A stretch of 64,000 bases of DNA from Candidatus Poribacteria bacterium. GTDB lineage: Bacteria > Poribacteria > WGA-4E > PCPOR2b. The first letter of the stretch is position 1. The number at the start of each line of letters is the position of its first letter. Of this stretch, positions 17,968 through 31,558 are shown piece by piece. The translations under genes and the position numbers were made by a program. The stretch spans positions 3,904,001 to 3,968,000 of the forward strand of contig OZ242326.1 of NCBI GenBank assembly GCA_965208325.1. The letters run 5' to 3'. Under the pieces are notes generated by a model that saw only the letters and a list, made by a program, of their open reading frames with translations, ran no database searches and was not told the origin of the DNA.

Positions 17968-18315
17968 ATGGAGATAAAAGCTCATCCAGAGCGATTGACA
18001 CGAAGATGGGAATTTCAGCGAGGGTATAAGAAGGGGAAGAAATATTGGAATCGGAATTTTGTTGTATATGTGTCTCGGAATTCTTTAAGTGTGGTACGTC
18101 TCGGCATTACCACCAGTAAAAAGTTAGGGAACAGTGTCAAACGGAATCGAGTCAAAAGGTTAATCAGAGAATCTTTCAGATTATCTAAACACCGAATTTG
18201 TCCAAATTACGACCTTATCGTTGTTGGACGAACGGCCGCGCTTGATATGAAATGCCAGCAAGCCAAATCTTCATTCTTACAGCTTTTGCGTCAAGCCAAG
18301 ATTCTCAAAACATGA
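17968..18315 (+). CDS. rnpA: Ribonuclease P protein component
   Basis: RL...EFQ, RLGITTSKKLGNSVKRNRVKRLIRE (RNR motif). Confidence 0.96.
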   Translation: MEIKAHPERLTRRWEFQRGYKKGKKYWNRNFVVYVSRNSLSVVRLGITTSKKLGNSVKRNRVKRLIRESFRLSKHRICPNYDLIVVGRTAALDMKCQQAKSSFLQLLRQAKILKT

Positions 18316-18327
18316 CTGTTTTTGTCT

Positions 18328-18537
18328 ATGAGAATAATTCTGATTTATCTGATACGCCTCTATCGTAAATTTATTTCCCCGCTCTTTCCGCCAACTTGCC
18401 GTTTCTACCCTACGTGCTCCCAATACTCTTTAGAAGCAATAATGAAGCATAATCTTTTGAAAGCGTGTTGGCTAACTTTCAAACGATTATCGAAGTGCCA
18501 ACCTTTTCACCCCGGTGGCTATGATCCGCTCAAATAA
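18328..18537 (+). CDS. yidD: Membrane protein insertion efficiency factor
   Basis: [16 protein letters not shown]...[11 protein letters not shown]. Confidence 0.96.
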
Positions 18538-18765
18538 AATTCCAAAAGAATTATGTGGCTGAATAGGGTCAAGCATAAAGTACCGGAAATCTGTAGTAGC
18601 GTTAACCGGAGCTCGTAATTCCTAATCTCCATATTCAATCTGTCGCTCTGCCGGCATAATGCGTTGCTGCCTAGAGTCTATAAAAGCGTGTGCATTGCTT
18701 ACGGCGTGTAAATGAAAACACAACTCTTTAGAATCATAATTGTTCATCTATGAGGAGATTTTTGA

Positions 18766-20559
18766 ATGGAGAGGCGTTACATCCTAGCGATTGCGCTCAT
18801 GATTATTGTAATGGTTAGCTGGACCATCTTCTTTAGTCCGCCGCCGCCTGAGCAAACCCCCGACCGGCAGCGGGAGGATTTGCCGGCCTCCCCGTCTGAA
18901 TCAACGATTGAAACACCAACACCAACACAAAGGGATGAGTCATCGCTTTATTTGAGTAGGGTTCAAGAAGGTCCAAGAACTCTTGTGCAAACCGACAACT
19001 ATGAAATTTCCTTTATTGACGAGCGCGCAATTGTCGGTGAATGGAGACTTAGAAAATATCCAGATCGATCTACCAACGACGAATCAATCAACTTGATTCC
19101 AAAAAGTGCCCAAAGTTGCCTCCGAGTTGATATTCCTGATTTGAAGAATGACACAATGTCGGCTGTCTGGAAGGCGGACAAACAACAAGTGATTCTCACC
19201 GATCAGTCTCGAGACAGGTTGACCTTCAAAACTCAGATTGGAGATAAACTCAAGGTATCCAAAGAATTTACTTTTTATAATGATCGCTATTTTGTGGACG
19301 TAGCGCTGACTTTCGAAAACATATCAAATCAACCGTTAGAGAATTACAAACTGTATTGGGGACCGGGGATTAATGCAGACCTTCTTCTCCATGAGCGCAA
19401 GCACAGCGGCAAAGGGAGGAGGGCTTCTAAAAATGAGGGGGCGGTAGCATATTTAGGACACGGCAAGCCAAGACAAGATTTTAGCGATTCAGAGAAAAAC
19501 GCCCCCGTCCTATGGGCGGGGATGAATAGCAAGTATTTTGCCGCGCTTATGATTCCAGATCCATCGCTCAATGCTTTGTATGAACGTGAAGAACTTATAG
19601 ATAATGGAGAAATTCCATCGGCTGAGATTGCTGCCTGGAAAGACGCGGCAAGCCTTGTCATTTCCGGTATTTCCGTCAATGAACGGCGCACCGATGTATT
19701 TCGAGTCTATGTTGGACCCAAGGAAGATAGTATCCTGAATAGGGTGACACATCCCAACGCACCCGATGATCCGCTTAGAATGAACAAGATTATTGACCTT
19801 GGCTTTTTGTGGCCAGTTGCTTGGGCGATGCTCTGGTTGCTTCGTGGACTCAATAGTATAATTGGAAATTATGGAATTTCAATCATTCTATTGACCTTAT
19901 TTACGAAACTGGCTGCCTACCCGCTAATCCGAAAAAGCTATAAGTCAATGAAGGAAATGCAGGAACTCCAGCCCTTACTTGCAGAATTAAAGGAGAAATA
20001 CAGAGACGATCCGCAAAAGTTAAATCGTGCCACAATGCGGCTATACAAAGAACACGGTGTCAATCCACTAGGCGGCTGTATTCCTTGGATACCGCAGTTG
20101 CCAATCCTATTTGCGTTATTCACGGTCTTTGGAAACGCGGTTGAGCTTCGTGCCGCCCCTTTCTGCTTATGGATGGACGATTTGTCTGGCCCTGATACCT
20201 TGTTCCCGTTACCCTTTACGATTCCCCTGCTTTTGATTGATGCAGTTCGGTTTTTGCCCATCATCTACGGTGCTACAACCTTGTTACAACAAAAAATGAA
20301 TGCAGGGGTGACGCCTATCGCAGACAATACTCAGGCAAAGATTATGCAGTTTATTCCCTTTATCTTTGTGTTTATTCTTTACAATTGGTCATCGGGGTTA
20401 ATTCTTTATTGGACATGTAGTAACGTTTTTGAAATTGGACGGCACCTTTTAACTCAATTCCGGAAATCAGAGGAGACCGAGCCTGTTAAAACCTTAACAT
20501 CAGGAAAACAACCTAAGCTAACAAAAAGGAGATCTCAACTCCAAAATCGAAGATCTTAA
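18766..20559 (+). CDS. yidC: Membrane protein insertase YidC
   Basis: N-terminal TM, large periplasmic domain, GNYGISIILLT, LYKEHGVNPLGGC and GLILYW. Confidence 0.96.
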   Translation: MERRYILAIALMIIVMVSWTIFFSPPPPEQTPDRQREDLPASPSESTIETPTPTQRDESSLYLSRVQEGPRTLVQTDNYEISFIDERAIVGEWRLRKYPDRSTNDESINLIPKSAQSCLRVDIPDLKNDTMSAVWKADKQQVILTDQSRDRLTFKTQIGDKLKVSKEFTFYNDRYFVDVALTFENISNQPLENYKLYWGPGINADLLLHERKHSGKGRRASKNEGAVAYLGHGKPRQDFSDSEKNAPVLWAGMNSKYFAALMIPDPSLNALYEREELIDNGEIPSAEIAAWKDAASLVISGISVNERRTDVFRVYVGPKEDSILNRVTHPNAPDDPLRMNKIIDLGFLWPVAWAMLWLLRGLNSIIGNYGISIILLTLFTKLAAYPLIRKSYKSMKEMQELQPLLAELKEKYRDDPQKLNRATMRLYKEHGVNPLGGCIPWIPQLPILFALFTVFGNAVELRAAPFCLWMDDLSGPDTLFPLPFTIPLLLIDAVRFLPIIYGATTLLQQKMNAGVTPIADNTQAKIMQFIPFIFVFILYNWSSGLILYWTCSNVFEIGRHLLTQFRKSEETEPVKTLTSGKQPKLTKRRSQLQNRRS

Positions 20560-20615
20560 TTAAATCTACCATCAATTTTGGGTCTCATTTTGGGGTATCG
20601 GGAATACAAGGTACC

Positions 20616-21248
20616 GTGCAACAATATGTTGAAACGGAAGGCAAAACTACAGAAGAAGCTTTAGAACATGCACTTGAAAAACTCGACGTTAGCCGAGAAC
20701 AAGTCAGTGTAAAAGTTATCCATGAAGCCACAAAGGGAATCTTGGGATTAGGCACGAAATTAGCCAAAATCCGCGCTACCGTAAAGGGAGATATTTCCCC
20801 AACCCCGGAATCTGTGCTGCATGAACTGTTGACCCATATGGGAGTCGAAGCCGAGATTGAAACGCGTAGCATTGACGATAACGTTCATCTCATTGTTAGT
20901 GCTGATACTCCTGGCTTGTTAATTGGTAGACATGGACAGACACTTAATGCAATTGAATACTTGGTCAACTGTATTTTGAACAAGTCATCCTTAGTTAAGA
21001 AGAGAGTTTTCGTTGATACAGAGGGGTACCGTGAACGTCGTGAAACTCTACTTGTTGATTTGGCTAATCGAACAGCTGCCAAAGTGAAGGAATCAAACTT
21101 GGAGGTTGTCCTAAATCCGATGACACCTCAGGACCGTCGGATTGTACACCTCGCATTACAGTCGGACAATGGTGTTGCGACTTATAGCCGTGGAGAGGGC
21201 ATGCTGCGGTGCGTCGTGGTCACGCCACACGAAAACCACGACCCATGA
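20616..21248 (+). CDS. jag: RNA-binding protein Jag/EloR (Jag_N-KH-R3H)
   Basis: GKTTEEA, LIGRHGQTLNAI (KH), RRIVH (R3H). Confidence 0.95.
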   Translation: MQQYVETEGKTTEEALEHALEKLDVSREQVSVKVIHEATKGILGLGTKLAKIRATVKGDISPTPESVLHELLTHMGVEAEIETRSIDDNVHLIVSADTPGLLIGRHGQTLNAIEYLVNCILNKSSLVKKRVFVDTEGYRERRETLLVDLANRTAAKVKESNLEVVLNPMTPQDRRIVHLALQSDNGVATYSRGEGMLRCVVVTPHENHDP

Positions 21249-21257
21249 CATGGGGTT

Positions 21258-22643
21258 ATGAGTCTATCTGATACGATTGCTGCAATTGCAACGCCTCGGG
21301 GCGAAGGTGGCATCGGGATTGTAAGGGTTAGTGGTGCCCTTGCTGTACCTATCGCTTGTAAGATTTTCCGGTCACCACGACATATCTCGCCAGCTCAATT
21401 TTCGACCCATACCCTCAACTATGGGCGGGTTGTCAATCCCGTTTCAAATGCTGTAATTGATGAAGTCATGCTGGGAATTATGTTGGCGCCCAAATCTTAT
21501 ACGGCGGAGGACGTCGTTGAGTTTAACTGTCACGGAGGCGTCATCCCATTACAGCAAGTCCTCGAATTGACGCTGCGTGCGGGAGCGCGTCTTGCAGAAC
21601 CCGGAGAATTCACCAAACGCGCCTTTCTCAATGATAGATTGGATCTTGCCCAAGCAGAGGCAGTTGTTGATTTGATTCAATCTCAAACAGAACTCAATTT
21701 CCGCGTTGCTATGGATCTGCTTAGCGGAAAGCTATCCCAAGAAGTAAACGCGCTCAGTGACCGGCTTGCAGACCTGCTCGCAGAAGTTGAAGCGTCAATT
21801 GACTTTCCGGATGAAGACCTTGATTTCATTGATTTAGCGGCGGCGCGAAAATCCGCTGAAGCCATCCTCAACGGGTTAAACCGCTTGATGGCGACCGCGC
21901 CGGACGGTAAAATTTTGCGAGAAGGCGCCCGTGTCGCTATTCTCGGCAAGCCAAATGTTGGGAAATCAAGCTTACTTAATGCTTTGTTGCAACAAGAACG
22001 GGCGATTGTCACGGAAATCCCCGGCACGACTCGGGATACAATCGAAGAACCGCTGAACCTACGTGGCATTCCGCTTAAGTTAATTGATACCGCAGGTATA
22101 CATCAGACTGAAGATGTTGTTGAACGCCAAGGCATAGTGCGCAGCAAATCCTATTTAGACGGTGCAGATTTACTTCTAGTGATGTTTGATGCTTCCCAAC
22201 CGCTAACCGAAGCAGACAGGCAATTGTTAGACGCTGTCAACCGTAGTAATGCAATTTTCATATTAAACAAAGTAGATTTGCCCGTAGTAACGACGATTGC
22301 AACTCTTCAGACTTATGCTCCCCAGAATTCGGTAGTTAAAACGTCCGTTTTGTATGGAGACGGTATTGAAGATTTGAAAACGGCGGTACTAAAGGAAATT
22401 CTCAAGGGACGAGAAACAATTAGCGAAGGGGTGATTGTCACAAATATTCGTCACTACGAGGCATTGCGCCGAGCAAAAATTGCACTTGAACAGGCGCGTG
22501 ATAGCTTATTTCATGCACAGTCACATGACCTAATCGCGGTAGACTTGCGGACTAGTTTAGATTGTCTTGGTGAGATTGTTGGCAAAATAACAGCCGAAGA
22601 CATTCTAGACCGCATTTTCTCGCAATTCTGCATCGGAAAATAG
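21258..22643 (+). CDS. mnmE: tRNA U34 modification GTPase MnmE
   Basis: DTIAAIATP, GKPNVGKSS, GTTRD, DTAG, NKVD and C-terminal FCIGK. Confidence 0.98.
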   Translation: MSLSDTIAAIATPRGEGGIGIVRVSGALAVPIACKIFRSPRHISPAQFSTHTLNYGRVVNPVSNAVIDEVMLGIMLAPKSYTAEDVVEFNCHGGVIPLQQVLELTLRAGARLAEPGEFTKRAFLNDRLDLAQAEAVVDLIQSQTELNFRVAMDLLSGKLSQEVNALSDRLADLLAEVEASIDFPDEDLDFIDLAAARKSAEAILNGLNRLMATAPDGKILREGARVAILGKPNVGKSSLLNALLQQERAIVTEIPGTTRDTIEEPLNLRGIPLKLIDTAGIHQTEDVVERQGIVRSKSYLDGADLLLVMFDASQPLTEADRQLLDAVNRSNAIFILNKVDLPVVTTIATLQTYAPQNSVVKTSVLYGDGIEDLKTAVLKEILKGRETISEGVIVTNIRHYEALRRAKIALEQARDSLFHAQSHDLIAVDLRTSLDCLGEIVGKITAEDILDRIFSQFCIGK

Positions 22644-22659
22644 CACGGAGGGTGTATAA

Positions 22660-22911
22660 ATGTTGGGACCGCAGCAGTTGTGGTGTCCTCGCTGCAAGCG
22701 GTACGTGGACACGAAACAAAAGCAAAATAAAGCGGGAAGACATGCCAAATTAGTAAAAATTGTCACGACTTGTGGAAGATGTCGGACAACTTTGTGCAGT
22801 AAGACTACAAGCATTCAGGTGGTTGAACAGATTCAAGCCAAAGCGGTTACAGAGCAAATGCCAAGTGATTCAGAACGGGAGGAAACTGAGAAAAACGGGA
22901 ATGAGTCTTGA
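22660..22911 (+). CDS. Small zinc-ribbon-like hypothetical protein
   Basis: CPRC...CGRC, GGAGG RBS, 16 nt after mnmE. Confidence 0.65.
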   Translation: MLGPQQLWCPRCKRYVDTKQKQNKAGRHAKLVKIVTTCGRCRTTLCSKTTSIQVVEQIQAKAVTEQMPSDSEREETEKNGNES

Positions 22912-23222
22912 CCAATTGACCACAGGCAATTGGAATTCCAAACGTGATTATGAGGTATCAGTGGAGGTTTAAGGGTTTATTCAATCCGTACCCAGATCCC
23001 AGATTTGCCTCCAGCAATTAGCCAATTTTGCACCTAAGTAGAATGCAGCCTAAACCCAATAGTTTTCAAATCTCGTCGTGTCGAATTTGCGATAAATTCA
23101 ATATGGAACTAGTTTCTCGTACCGACGCCAAACTTGGAAATTTGCTCACATCGTTTGGACTAGGTAAATAATGATACGTTTAATTCTATAAGTACCAATT
23201 CCAATATCAAAGGAGAATACAG

Positions 23223-24122
23223 ATGTTCAATCGTACTTGGAAGCGGAATCAGCTATCGGTGTTGGTTATCCTGATGTTTACCGCCGCTGCCTATCCGCTG
23301 GCCTTTGCATCAACCGAGATTAAGTGGGAGAAGTCAATTGAGAAGGGAATGATGGAAGCCCAAGAAACAGGTAAACCCATTATGATGGACTTTTACACAG
23401 AATGGTGAGGTTCCTGTAAGCGGCTGGATGCCACTACGTTTAGTGATTCAAAAGTTGTTGAACTATCAAAAAAATTCGTTACCTTGAAGTTAAATCCGGA
23501 GTCAAGCGATGAGCACGCTGAAGCTTACAGGACATACGGAGATGGATCAGGCGCAGTCCCAACAATTGCATTCGTTGACACTGAAGGGAATCCAATCAGT
23601 GTTATTGTTGGTTACAGAGATGCAAAGGAATTTGCCGTGCTTATGGAGGGGACTCTCAAGGAGGAAGAACGGTTTCAGCAACTAAAAATTGAAATCAAAG
23701 AAAATCCAGATGCCCCGATGATTAATGCTGAAATTGCAATCATCTATGTCAAGCGGGGGGACATTGAGAATGGCAAACCTATCGCCGATAAAGTTCTTAA
23801 ACTAGATCCAATGAACAAAACCGGTTTGTTGCCGGATATCCACCTCAACCTAGGATTACATTACGCAACGCATGCTGATGAAGACAACGCGGAAGATTTT
23901 TATCGAAAGGCGGAGACGCACTTTCAAACGGTCATCGAAAAGTACGCACAAAGCACAGTTTATGAGCAGGCTAAGTATCACCTGAGCTTAACCTATGCAC
24001 TTCAAAAAAAGTATCAACAGGCAATCGAACTTCTTGAGACATTGAGCGATTCTAAGAACGAAGAAATTAAGGCAAACGCTGGTGTTTTGCTAGATCGCAT
24101 CAAAACGTTCATTGACGAGTAG
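23223..24122 (+). CDS. Exported thioredoxin-fold/TPR selenoprotein (UGA 23406-23408 read as Sec; WUGSC)
   Basis: ORFs 23223-23408 and 23484-24122 share one frame with only TGA between them: MDFYTEW-TGA-GSCKRLD. Signal peptide, TPR-like C-terminus and a downstream hairpin. Confidence 0.9.
23415..23437 (+). promoter_or_regulatory. Putative bacterial SECIS element
   Basis: GUA-A-G-C-GGC(UGGAU)GCC-A-C-UAC hairpin. Apical loop begins 16 nt after the UGA and has G at position 2. Confidence 0.6.
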
Positions 24123-29935: not shown

Positions 29936-30484
29936 TGATTTCCCCTTTGAACCGGTGTTAACCCATGGTCGCTCGGATTCGCCTATGCCTGCGCAATCAA
30001 ACCTACACCACATCGGAAATTGTATCAAATTGTAACGCTGACCGTCAATGTGTTTATCCCAACGGCCCATCAGCAAATAATTTGGAATGAGGCAATAAAC
30101 TAAATTCCAAACTGCAATCCATCCGACGAACTTAAACATGGTTGCGCCGATTGTCCATATTTAGGCCATAGACTAAAAACCGTGAATTCCCCAGATTTGC
30201 AGAAGGCGATGTGTCCCGAAAGAGGCATTTTTCAACAACCATCGCCTGTGATTGAAAATGATGAGGATTTATCCATGCACTCAAGAAATCTAGCGCCGAC
30301 TACGAGATTAACTTTGATAAAATTCTGTCGGCTTTTGTTCTGTAGATGTTGGTCAAAGAATGCCGTAATGTATTTAATCGCGGGGATGATTCTTCATTTG
30401 CAACTCCATTTGCTGCTGTGGTACACTTTGTACGAGGGGGATGTTCACATTTTAGAGGAAAAATCGGTAGAAAAGGAAAAAAAT

Positions 30485-31558
30485 GTGGTTAGACAATCCA
30501 TTATATTATCAGCCGCCGTGTTAATTTTACTGGTTAGTAATGTGTCAGCTTCGGAGAAAATCGGCGCGCCTAATGCGGGCAAAAGATTCTCAGAAGACCA
30601 CATCATCACAGTATTGCCCTTCGATGCAATCCCCGCAATCAAGGATCCGCGGTTTGTCTCTGCCCGCGAGGCAAAATTGCGAGACGATTCACCGATGATT
30701 GGAGTCAGTTTCAACGGTGAAAGCCATGCCTACTCTATCTATCTGCTTAATGGGCACGAAATTGTCAACGATGTTGTTGGCGGCGTGGAAGTAGCGATTA
30801 CCTGGTGACCACTCTGTCGAACGGCAATCGTGTATAGCCGCGAACTCGAAGGAAAAACGTATACCTTTGGAGTCTCAGGCAAACTGCTTTACGATGCACT
30901 TCTGATGTATGACCATCAAACGCGTTCCCTTTGGTCACATATCACGGGGAAAGCAGTAACAGGGCAACTCAAAGGAAAACAGTTGTCAATGATGGCTGCA
31001 ATGCCGCAAATCACTTGGAAAGAGTGGCGATTAAACTACCCGAACACAAAAGTGCTCTCTGTTCAGTTCGATTCCCGTCATCCGAATCTGAAAATCGAAG
31101 AGCCGAAGTTCGATAGTTATGCAAGATATCGAGCTGGACCCAATGCAGGAATAAGTTCTACACAATATAACGATAACCGTTTACCGAATAAATCAGTCGT
31201 TATCGGTGTGCGAGTCAATGCCCGTTTCAGTGCCTATCCTCTTACAGCGTTTGACAGGACATCCGTTATAAACGATGTCATTGACGGTGTGCCGGTCTTA
31301 GCGTTTCACGACAATGTGTCCGGCGCGGCCGCTGTGTTTATGCGTGCACTGGAAGGGAAGATTCTCACTTTTGAGCCGTGCGGCGGAAATGTTGCCATAG
31401 ATACCACGACTGGCACGCGCTGGAATTTGGTCGCTGGCAAGGCTACCGAAGGAAAACTCAAAGGTAAGACTCTTGACCGAATTCCGGCGATGAATATCTA
31501 TTGGTTTGCATGGGGACGTTACCATCCTGAAACAACCGTCTATCAATTGCCGGATTAG
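30485..31558 (+). CDS. Exported DUF3179-family selenoprotein (UGA 30806-30808 read as Sec; WUPLC)
   Basis: DAIPAI.DP.F, HEIVND, ITW-TGA-PLCRTA, FGVSGKL, MYD.QT.SLW and WFAW all lie in one frame. GTG 30485 starts a signal peptide. Confidence 0.9.
30821..30840 (+). promoter_or_regulatory. Putative bacterial SECIS element
   Basis: CGGC-A-AU(CGUGU)AU-A-GCCG hairpin with the loop about 20 nt after the UGA and G at loop position 2. An alternative UGUC(GAAC)GGCA stem lies closer. Confidence 0.45.

Follow-up and report, generated by a model that had tools for sequence, protein, structure and literature searches.

Introduction

No kind of selenoprotein is more common in bacteria than thioredoxin-fold proteins with a UxxC motif, and a further example is therefore unlikely to surprise a specialist. 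Selenocysteine (Sec) is inserted at UGA in bacteria through the reading of a hairpin by SelB, and in thioredoxin folds the first residue of the active-site motif serves as the nucleophile and the second resolves.

Among the families described to date, the 'Thiol:disulfide interchange protein' selenoproteins (PF13098, UxxC) were predicted with high confidence (PMC13188914 Table 1), and Sec-thioredoxin (PF00085, UxxC) is listed as experimentally verified (PMC13188914). Thioredoxin-like UxxC families and fusions are also described in PMC2398784, with no TPR among them in the accessible part of that paper. E. coli CnoX, also known as YbbN, has an SxxC motif and the partners GroEL and DnaK, according to PMC8129009. 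Sec use in Poribacteria is already in print, since Sec hydrogenases are reported from these bacteria in PMC13582414.

Here we describe a gene encoding a thioredoxin-TPR protein with an in-frame TGA, located in a 64,000-nucleotide stretch of a Poribacteria genome (the window). It is a widespread, apparently uncatalogued form of a well-known selenoprotein kind, which databases keep cut in two. A search of the open-access literature, whose supplements could still list it, found no published description of this protein; the architecture is in neither the 2026 catalogue table nor NCBIfam, and the words 'TPR' and 'Poribacteria' have no occurrence in the main text of PMC13188914.

Results and discussion

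Reading frame and selenocysteine machinery

Exactly one TGA lies inside the 299-codon frame of the gene (Table 1), at codon 62 in the context MDFYTEW-TGA-GSCKRL, and only the downstream 212-aa part of the gene appears in a standard ORF listing. A previous reading of the window from its sequence alone (the sequence-only reading) had placed this single TGA on the first Cys of a thioredoxin CxxC, with which both the frame and the homologue column agree. The frame is identical in all 30 of the closest orthologues (length 294-305 aa), and an independently assembled contig, which may derive from the window's own source sample, carries the same letters. Scans for promoters and terminators did not rise above chance (4 against an expected 2.7; terminators 0).

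Table 1 Features of the selenoprotein gene and its surroundings (window coordinates)
Feature	Position	Strand	Basis
rnpA-yidD-yidC-jag-mnmE cluster	17968-22643	+	mnmE by Pfam
83-aa ORF with two CxxC, zinc-ribbon-like, between mnmE and the selenoprotein gene	22660-22911	+	
Shine-Dalgarno-like AAGGAG, 7 nt 5' of the ATG	23210..23215	+	Sequence
Coding sequence, 299 aa with Sec62, TAG end	23223..24122	+	Single read-through frame
Predicted Sec-pathway signal peptide, aa 1-29	23223..23309	+	Hydropathy
Thioredoxin-fold domain, ~aa 30-146, Thioredoxin_7/_2, DsbD-gamma/DsbH-like	23310..23660	+	Pfam and fold
TGA, read as Sec62, first position of UxxC	23406..23408	+	Frame and homologue comparison
Cys65, second (resolving) position of UxxC	23415..23417	+	Invariant, 79-row alignment
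SECIS-type element within the coding sequence	23415..23444	+	Comparison of homologues
Apical stem GGC/GCC with loop UGGAU; looser lower stem	23422-23424/23430-23432; loop 23425-23429	+	
Pro113, invariant, at the thioredoxin cis-Pro position	23559..23561	+	79-row alignment
Linker helix and TPR arm, aa 147-299	23661..24119	+	Pfam TPR, AlphaFold2 model
Second split selenoprotein gene, DUF3179, UxxC (ITW-U-PLC)	30182-31558; TGA 30806-30808	+	

The host genome is a single contig of 4.71 Mb (95.6% complete), and all 26 close relatives in a genome-contig search (33 loci in all) were Candidatus or uncultured Poribacteria. Profile searches of the genome recovered selA (588.7 bits), selB (373.5 bits), selD (376.8 bits) and selC, the tRNA-Sec gene (77.5 bits), all above curated cut-offs; selA, selB and the tRNA-Sec gene are adjacent, and selD, itself with an in-frame TGA, lies elsewhere in the genome. 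The sequence-only reading had predicted selABCD and would have given up the Sec assignment had a complete genome lacked this machinery, which is present. In the phylum as a whole, selA was found in 163 of 176 genomes. TGA terminates 590 of the 1736 long ORFs in the host genome and TGG makes up 1.4% of its codons, so that TGA is an ordinary stop and the code is standard; translation of the TGA as Trp was rejected on these figures. Judged by these observations and by the sequence comparisons below, the in-frame UGA almost certainly encodes selenocysteine.

Conservation of the TGA column

The phylum was searched with the thioredoxin domain of the window protein as query. Within the same order, 156 of 158 other genomes matched at E < 1e-22, one matched weakly and one had no match; outside the order, the same query found no match in 16 of 17 genomes and a weak one in the other. 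Every match listed (150, with a further 35 beyond the list) contained exactly one TGA, the position of which was read in 50 loci, comprising the 30 best and 20 picked for distance, that span four families at 32-100% identity (median 49%). Column 62 is TGA in all 50, which removes the concern that the TGA might be private to one assembly and led us to reject a nonsense mutation.

Cys occupies the column in more distant homologues, namely in 135 of the 138 representatives covering it (of 150 returned from a 50%-clustered library), most commonly as WCGWC, and in 56 of the 58 representatives with the same length and two-domain layout. In two other phyla, TGY codons fill the column at 10 of 23 and 27 of 27 readable loci, respectively. 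The in-frame UGA therefore stands where homologues have Cys, and the check proposed by the sequence-only reading, for Cys or TGA at this column, gave TGA near and Cys far. Its WUGSC does not describe the family, in which orthologues differ at both middle positions (GS, GW, GF, SW, GY and others). W35, U/C62, C65 and P113 are invariant in the 79-row alignment, and most orthologues contain no further Cys; Pro113 presumably has the cis-Pro role established for thioredoxin folds.

Database entries of the Poribacteria family are mostly fragments of 210-214 aa named 'TPR repeat protein' or 'TolA-binding protein'. Other entries are full-length with W at column 62, and we infer that these stem from gene callers choosing code 4. 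Recognition of the Sec codon corrects a systematic annotation error that has left a gene of almost every genome in a major Poribacteria order truncated in databases, or with Trp at its active site.

A SECIS-type hairpin downstream of the TGA

The 45-nt stretch 3' of the TGA folds into a hairpin (-7.9 kcal/mol). The sequence-only reading had this hairpin begin 16 nt after the TGA, which is right for the UGGAU loop and wrong for the 3-bp stem, the start of which follows after 13 nt. The SECIS model in section 5 of PMC13188914 has a loop of 3-9 nt with G within its leading two bases, 16-37 nt from the UGA, an energy of <= -7.5 kcal/mol and an upper stem of 4-16 bp. Loop size (5 nt), spacing (16 nt), G position and energy all agree with these rules; the upper stem, with 3 contiguous pairs followed by a C-A mismatch and more pairs, is one pair below the model, and many orthologues have 4 contiguous upper-stem pairs. 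Folds of 36-100 nt did not exceed shuffles in stability (z -0.59 to +0.98), and the UGGAU loop was in 0 of 4 minimum-energy folds. The hairpin is thus weak on its own by energy, and the case for it is a comparative one.

The apical three pairs are kept in 98.5% of cells across 45 distinct sequences, from which RNAalifold predicted precisely those three pairs. Both partners of one apical pair differ in 3 sequences, a weak covariation by itself that shuffles equal in 19 of 500 (cells) and 309 of 500 (pairs). A first register for the lower stem was rejected (43.6% paired); the corrected register is 82.2% paired with no two-sided change, and is only suggestive because it was chosen after seeing the sequences.

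Codon choice points to the same bases. Cys65 is encoded by TGT in 49 of 50 homologues (genome-wide share 39%), Arg67 by CGG in 45 of 46 (22%), Leu68 by CTG in 50 of 50 (19%) and Ala70 by GCC in 47 of 50 (25%), against a median top-codon share of 0.49 (0.24-0.89) at 49 other conserved positions of the gene with 4- to 6-fold degeneracy; the homologues are not independent, and the control sites share the same history. On this codon evidence, the bases just 3' of the TGA are under strong synonymous constraint.

We further applied a crude hairpin test, consisting of a loop of 3-9 nt whose first base lies 16-23 nt past the codon, at least 3 pairs, and GG or GU in the first three loop positions, with random synonymous re-coding as the null. 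The test was passed by 44 of 45 Poribacteria sequences (10.3 expected, maximum 17 in 200 draws), only 29 of 45 non-Poribacteria metagenome Sec forms (15.7 expected, maximum 26) and all 13 Sec forms from the phylum of a Fidelibacterota genome (3.6 expected). There was no excess among the Cys forms of the Fidelibacterota phylum (3 of 10 vs 3.5 expected) or of Acidobacteriota (10 of 26 vs 10.0 expected), in a two-phylum set from which 10 of 60 loci, unread by the motif finder, were left out. Since Sec forms exceed expectation and Cys forms remain at it, the hairpin signal tracks the TGA and not the protein sequence.

Protein architecture and comparison with known families

Residues 1-29 have a basic start, a hydrophobic core, a predicted A-F-A cleavage site and no lipobox Cys, with a hydropathy peak at aa 11-29 (mean 2.12 vs <=1.07 after aa 40). 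The pattern is similar in most orthologues, and some distant Sec forms have a lipobox-like Cys instead. The protein is very probably exported, and its earlier description as secreted stands as far as this hydropathy pattern carries it. Residues 20-138 match Thioredoxin_7 (PF13899, 66.3 bits), Thioredoxin_2 (PF13098, 50.9 bits), DUF255 (36.1 bits) and Thioredoxin (PF00085, 34.3 bits), and residues 170-273 match TPR_2 and TPR_8, all above cut-off. An AlphaFold2 model (pLDDT 95.2, pTM 0.85) comprises a thioredoxin fold without the DsbA helical insertion, followed by a long helix that acts as linker (134-160) and then by seven helices (165-298), so the TPR region noticed from the sequence is real by both Pfam and the model.

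YbbN of E. coli and the homologue from Salmonella take the first three places among the Foldseek matches (E 7e-7 to 2e-6), followed by DsbD-gamma and DsbH. A wide fold search ranked 3F9U first (Z 15.7, rmsd 1.8, 123 aligned), then DsbH 2JU5 (15.5), a Thermus thioredoxin (15.4) and DsbD-gamma 1VRS (14.9). Of these, 3F9U, DsbH and DsbD-gamma are thioredoxins that are exported or act in a reducing pathway. The TPR arm resembles the TPR domain of YbgF (2XEV, Z 15.2, rmsd 1.9 A) and, in the wide search, that of YfgM. A full-length relative was not found among solved structures.

The domain and motif of the protein agree with the PF13098 selenoprotein entry; its architecture is not listed. It exceeds the PF13098 cut-off of 27 bits and has one Sec in UxxC with a downstream SECIS, with PF13899 scoring higher; it is set apart by description, the TPR fusion being absent from the Table 1 description of that family (representative WP_011366075.1). 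With Sec-thioredoxin it shares the fold, the Sec position and the expected chemistry (PF00085 cut-off 23.5 bits), and differs in its predicted signal peptide, TPR arm and length of 299 aa; membership of the thioredoxin equivalog TIGR01068 was rejected (38.9 vs 96.8 bits). DsbD-gamma and DsbH, the closest structural neighbours of the thioredoxin domain, have Cys where it has Sec and no TPR arm, and the window protein further differs from DsbD in standing alone with only a gamma-like domain, without alpha or beta.

None of 17 NCBIfam matches reached cut-off. Trx7/PDZ (NF041199) and TsoB (NF045694) similarly join a related Trx7/DsbD-like domain to another domain. The former was rejected at 30.1 bits against a cut-off of 300, having CxxU and PDZ where the window protein has UxxC and no PDZ match, and the latter, which has a rhodanese domain and two Sec, at 69 against 805 bits. 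Also rejected were the UGSC family NF041046, with no match at E 0.01 and with the UGSC middle residues variable here, and the VPGUxxT NCBIfam family, whose HMM cut-off was not reached.

Redox role

The host genome encodes one complete three-domain DsbD, the gamma domain of which is 35% identical to the window's thioredoxin domain over 133 aa, and one VKOR (80.8 bits); DsbB had no match in this 95.6% complete genome. The exported Sec thioredoxin-TPR protein is, in our judgement, probably a DsbD-fed envelope disulfide reductase or isomerase, and a reducing or isomerising direction is favoured to about the same degree. SelB would bind the hairpin 3' of the UGA and deliver Sec-tRNA. In the mature protein Sec62 would attack a disulfide or an oxidised thiol of the substrate and Cys65 would resolve the intermediate to leave an Se-S bond, which a membrane electron donor, likely the genome's single DsbD, would re-reduce; the TPR arm may dock a client or partner, in line with the substrate-binding arm proposed in the sequence-only reading.

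An envelope chaperone-redoxin resembling CnoX/YbbN, in which unfolded clients would sit on the TPR while Sec62 protects their cysteines from oxidative stress, is an unlikely alternative. The domain order is shared, an N-terminal thioredoxin domain followed by a C-terminal TPR domain, YbbN heads the Foldseek list, and nearly all genomes of the order have the gene, usually behind yidC. However, the YbbN match (PDB 3QOU) has 14% identity, TM 0.30 and rmsd 20.8 A, and hence reflects domain order and not overall shape; nor is YbbN among the 50 matches listed in the wide fold search. CnoX is described with cytoplasmic foldases and two five-helix TPR subdomains, whereas the window protein has a signal-peptide pattern, UxxC in place of the SxxC of E. 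coli CnoX, and one seven-helix arm. The layout is CnoX-like, yet the protein fails CnoX membership. The fullest version of this alternative, equally unlikely, would be a periplasmic chaperone-redoxin armed with selenium, the counterpart of CnoX in the envelope, which guards newly exported proteins and is at once an order core gene behind yidC and the founder of a multi-phylum family with several Sec/Cys switches and selA always kept. If it were true, Sec/Cys sister pairs would be a direct test of the reasons for which Sec is retained or lost by bacteria in an oxidising compartment.

An oxidising role is conceivable because the genome also has VKOR, and the same selenoprotein might be a DsbA-like dithiol oxidase for exported proteins, recycled by VKOR in a genome where DsbB was not found. 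Val precedes Pro113 in the window's genome, as in DsbA, but GYP or GFP is found at this position in most orthologues, the model is a plain thioredoxin fold lacking the helical insertion of DsbA, and DsbD-gamma and DsbH are the folds closest to it. The low, reducing potential that Se-S bonds favour also argues against the oxidase, and we regard it as improbable.

Dedication to a single pathway, such as that of cytochrome c maturation or of a particular envelope machine, in which the TPR would bind a fixed partner and not varied clients, is quite doubtful. The best fold match, 3F9U, is a domain putatively exported and related to cytochrome c biogenesis, and the arm is like the YbgF and YfgM TPR domains, but Z 13-15 TPR fold matches are common for helical repeats and no ccm or envelope-machine genes are among the conserved neighbours. 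It is scarcely credible that the TGA is something other than Sec, whether it arose by nonsense mutation or sequencing error, is a genuine stop between two proteins, or is read as Trp, as the stored fragments and W entries might imply, given that TGA is shared across four families with both halves kept in one frame, is an ordinary stop in the genome and is replaced by Cys elsewhere, that the hairpin signal goes with TGA and not with a Cys codon, and that a second assembly, possibly of the same sample, agrees. The preferred reading remains the DsbD-fed reductase or isomerase.

Gene neighbourhood and further in-frame TGA genes

The gene lies behind a cluster of which rnpA, yidD, yidC and jag were assigned from their sequences; a cluster of this composition is typical near the replication origin. 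In 47 loci, partly from the same genomes, mnmE is just upstream in 35, usually with jag and yidC, and a convergent rRNA pseudouridine synthase gene is next in 24, so that the selenoprotein gene is usually attached to the yidC-jag-mnmE cluster across the order. These neighbours name neither a redox partner nor a substrate in the 47 loci. The intervening 83-aa ORF, without a Pfam match above cut-off, could be co-transcribed with the selenoprotein gene; among close loci 28 of 30 have it, and among distant ones 4 of 20.

The second split gene in the window encodes a read-through protein with a match to PF11376 that spans the entire model (267.7 bits), and its true start probably lies downstream of 30182; this DUF3179 selenoprotein family is already catalogued (PMC13188914). 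A crude genome-wide read-through scan gave 8 UxxC/CxxU among 77 candidates, and it is unable to size the selenoproteome because selD is missing from its list. The candidates include in-frame TGA genes near 2377540 (+) and 4409564 (+), which we take to be SelW-like CxxU and peroxiredoxin-like UxxC proteins, respectively. The window's genome seems rich in selenoproteins.

Spread of the family and Sec/Cys switching

The exact DNA pattern of the Sec form, used as a metagenome query, matched 69 stretches, which together with two genome loci yielded 73 genes and 64 distinct proteins, seven of them Poribacteria-like. The TPR part is reached in 45 of the 49 genes with a complete 3' end. Clustering at 50% identity divided the 52 proteins of at least 200 aa into 18 groups, of which 14 are non-Poribacteria; the GC content of the contigs ranges over 38-73%, and the Sec form is present in one Fidelibacterota genome. 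The list of bacterial selenoproteins thereby gains an exported thioredoxin-TPR architecture, with at least 14 non-Poribacteria sequence clusters.

A quick tree (LG+G4, unrooted, no mixture model, 84 rows) placed the 14 Poribacteria rows on one branch (support 99). In the Fidelibacterota phylum, 13 Sec and 10 Cys forms are interleaved, including a Sec/Cys sister pair. Nine Sec/Cys state changes are needed on the tree, which, being unrooted, does not give the direction of gain versus loss. All 40 genomes tested have selA, comprising 30 with TGA in the match and 10 with Cys forms, and loss of the Sec machinery was rejected as the origin of the latter. Sec/Cys sister pairs in selA-positive genomes offer material on what selenium buys in envelope redox chemistry.

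Two homologues with a Cys codon (TGT) retain part of the SECIS sequence of the Sec form, which hints at a recent Sec-to-Cys change in selA-positive genomes. Three short exported-type Sec forms (129-143 aa) have the same motif without the TPR arm, and one metagenome contig carries two tandem Sec thioredoxin-TPR genes 909 bases apart.
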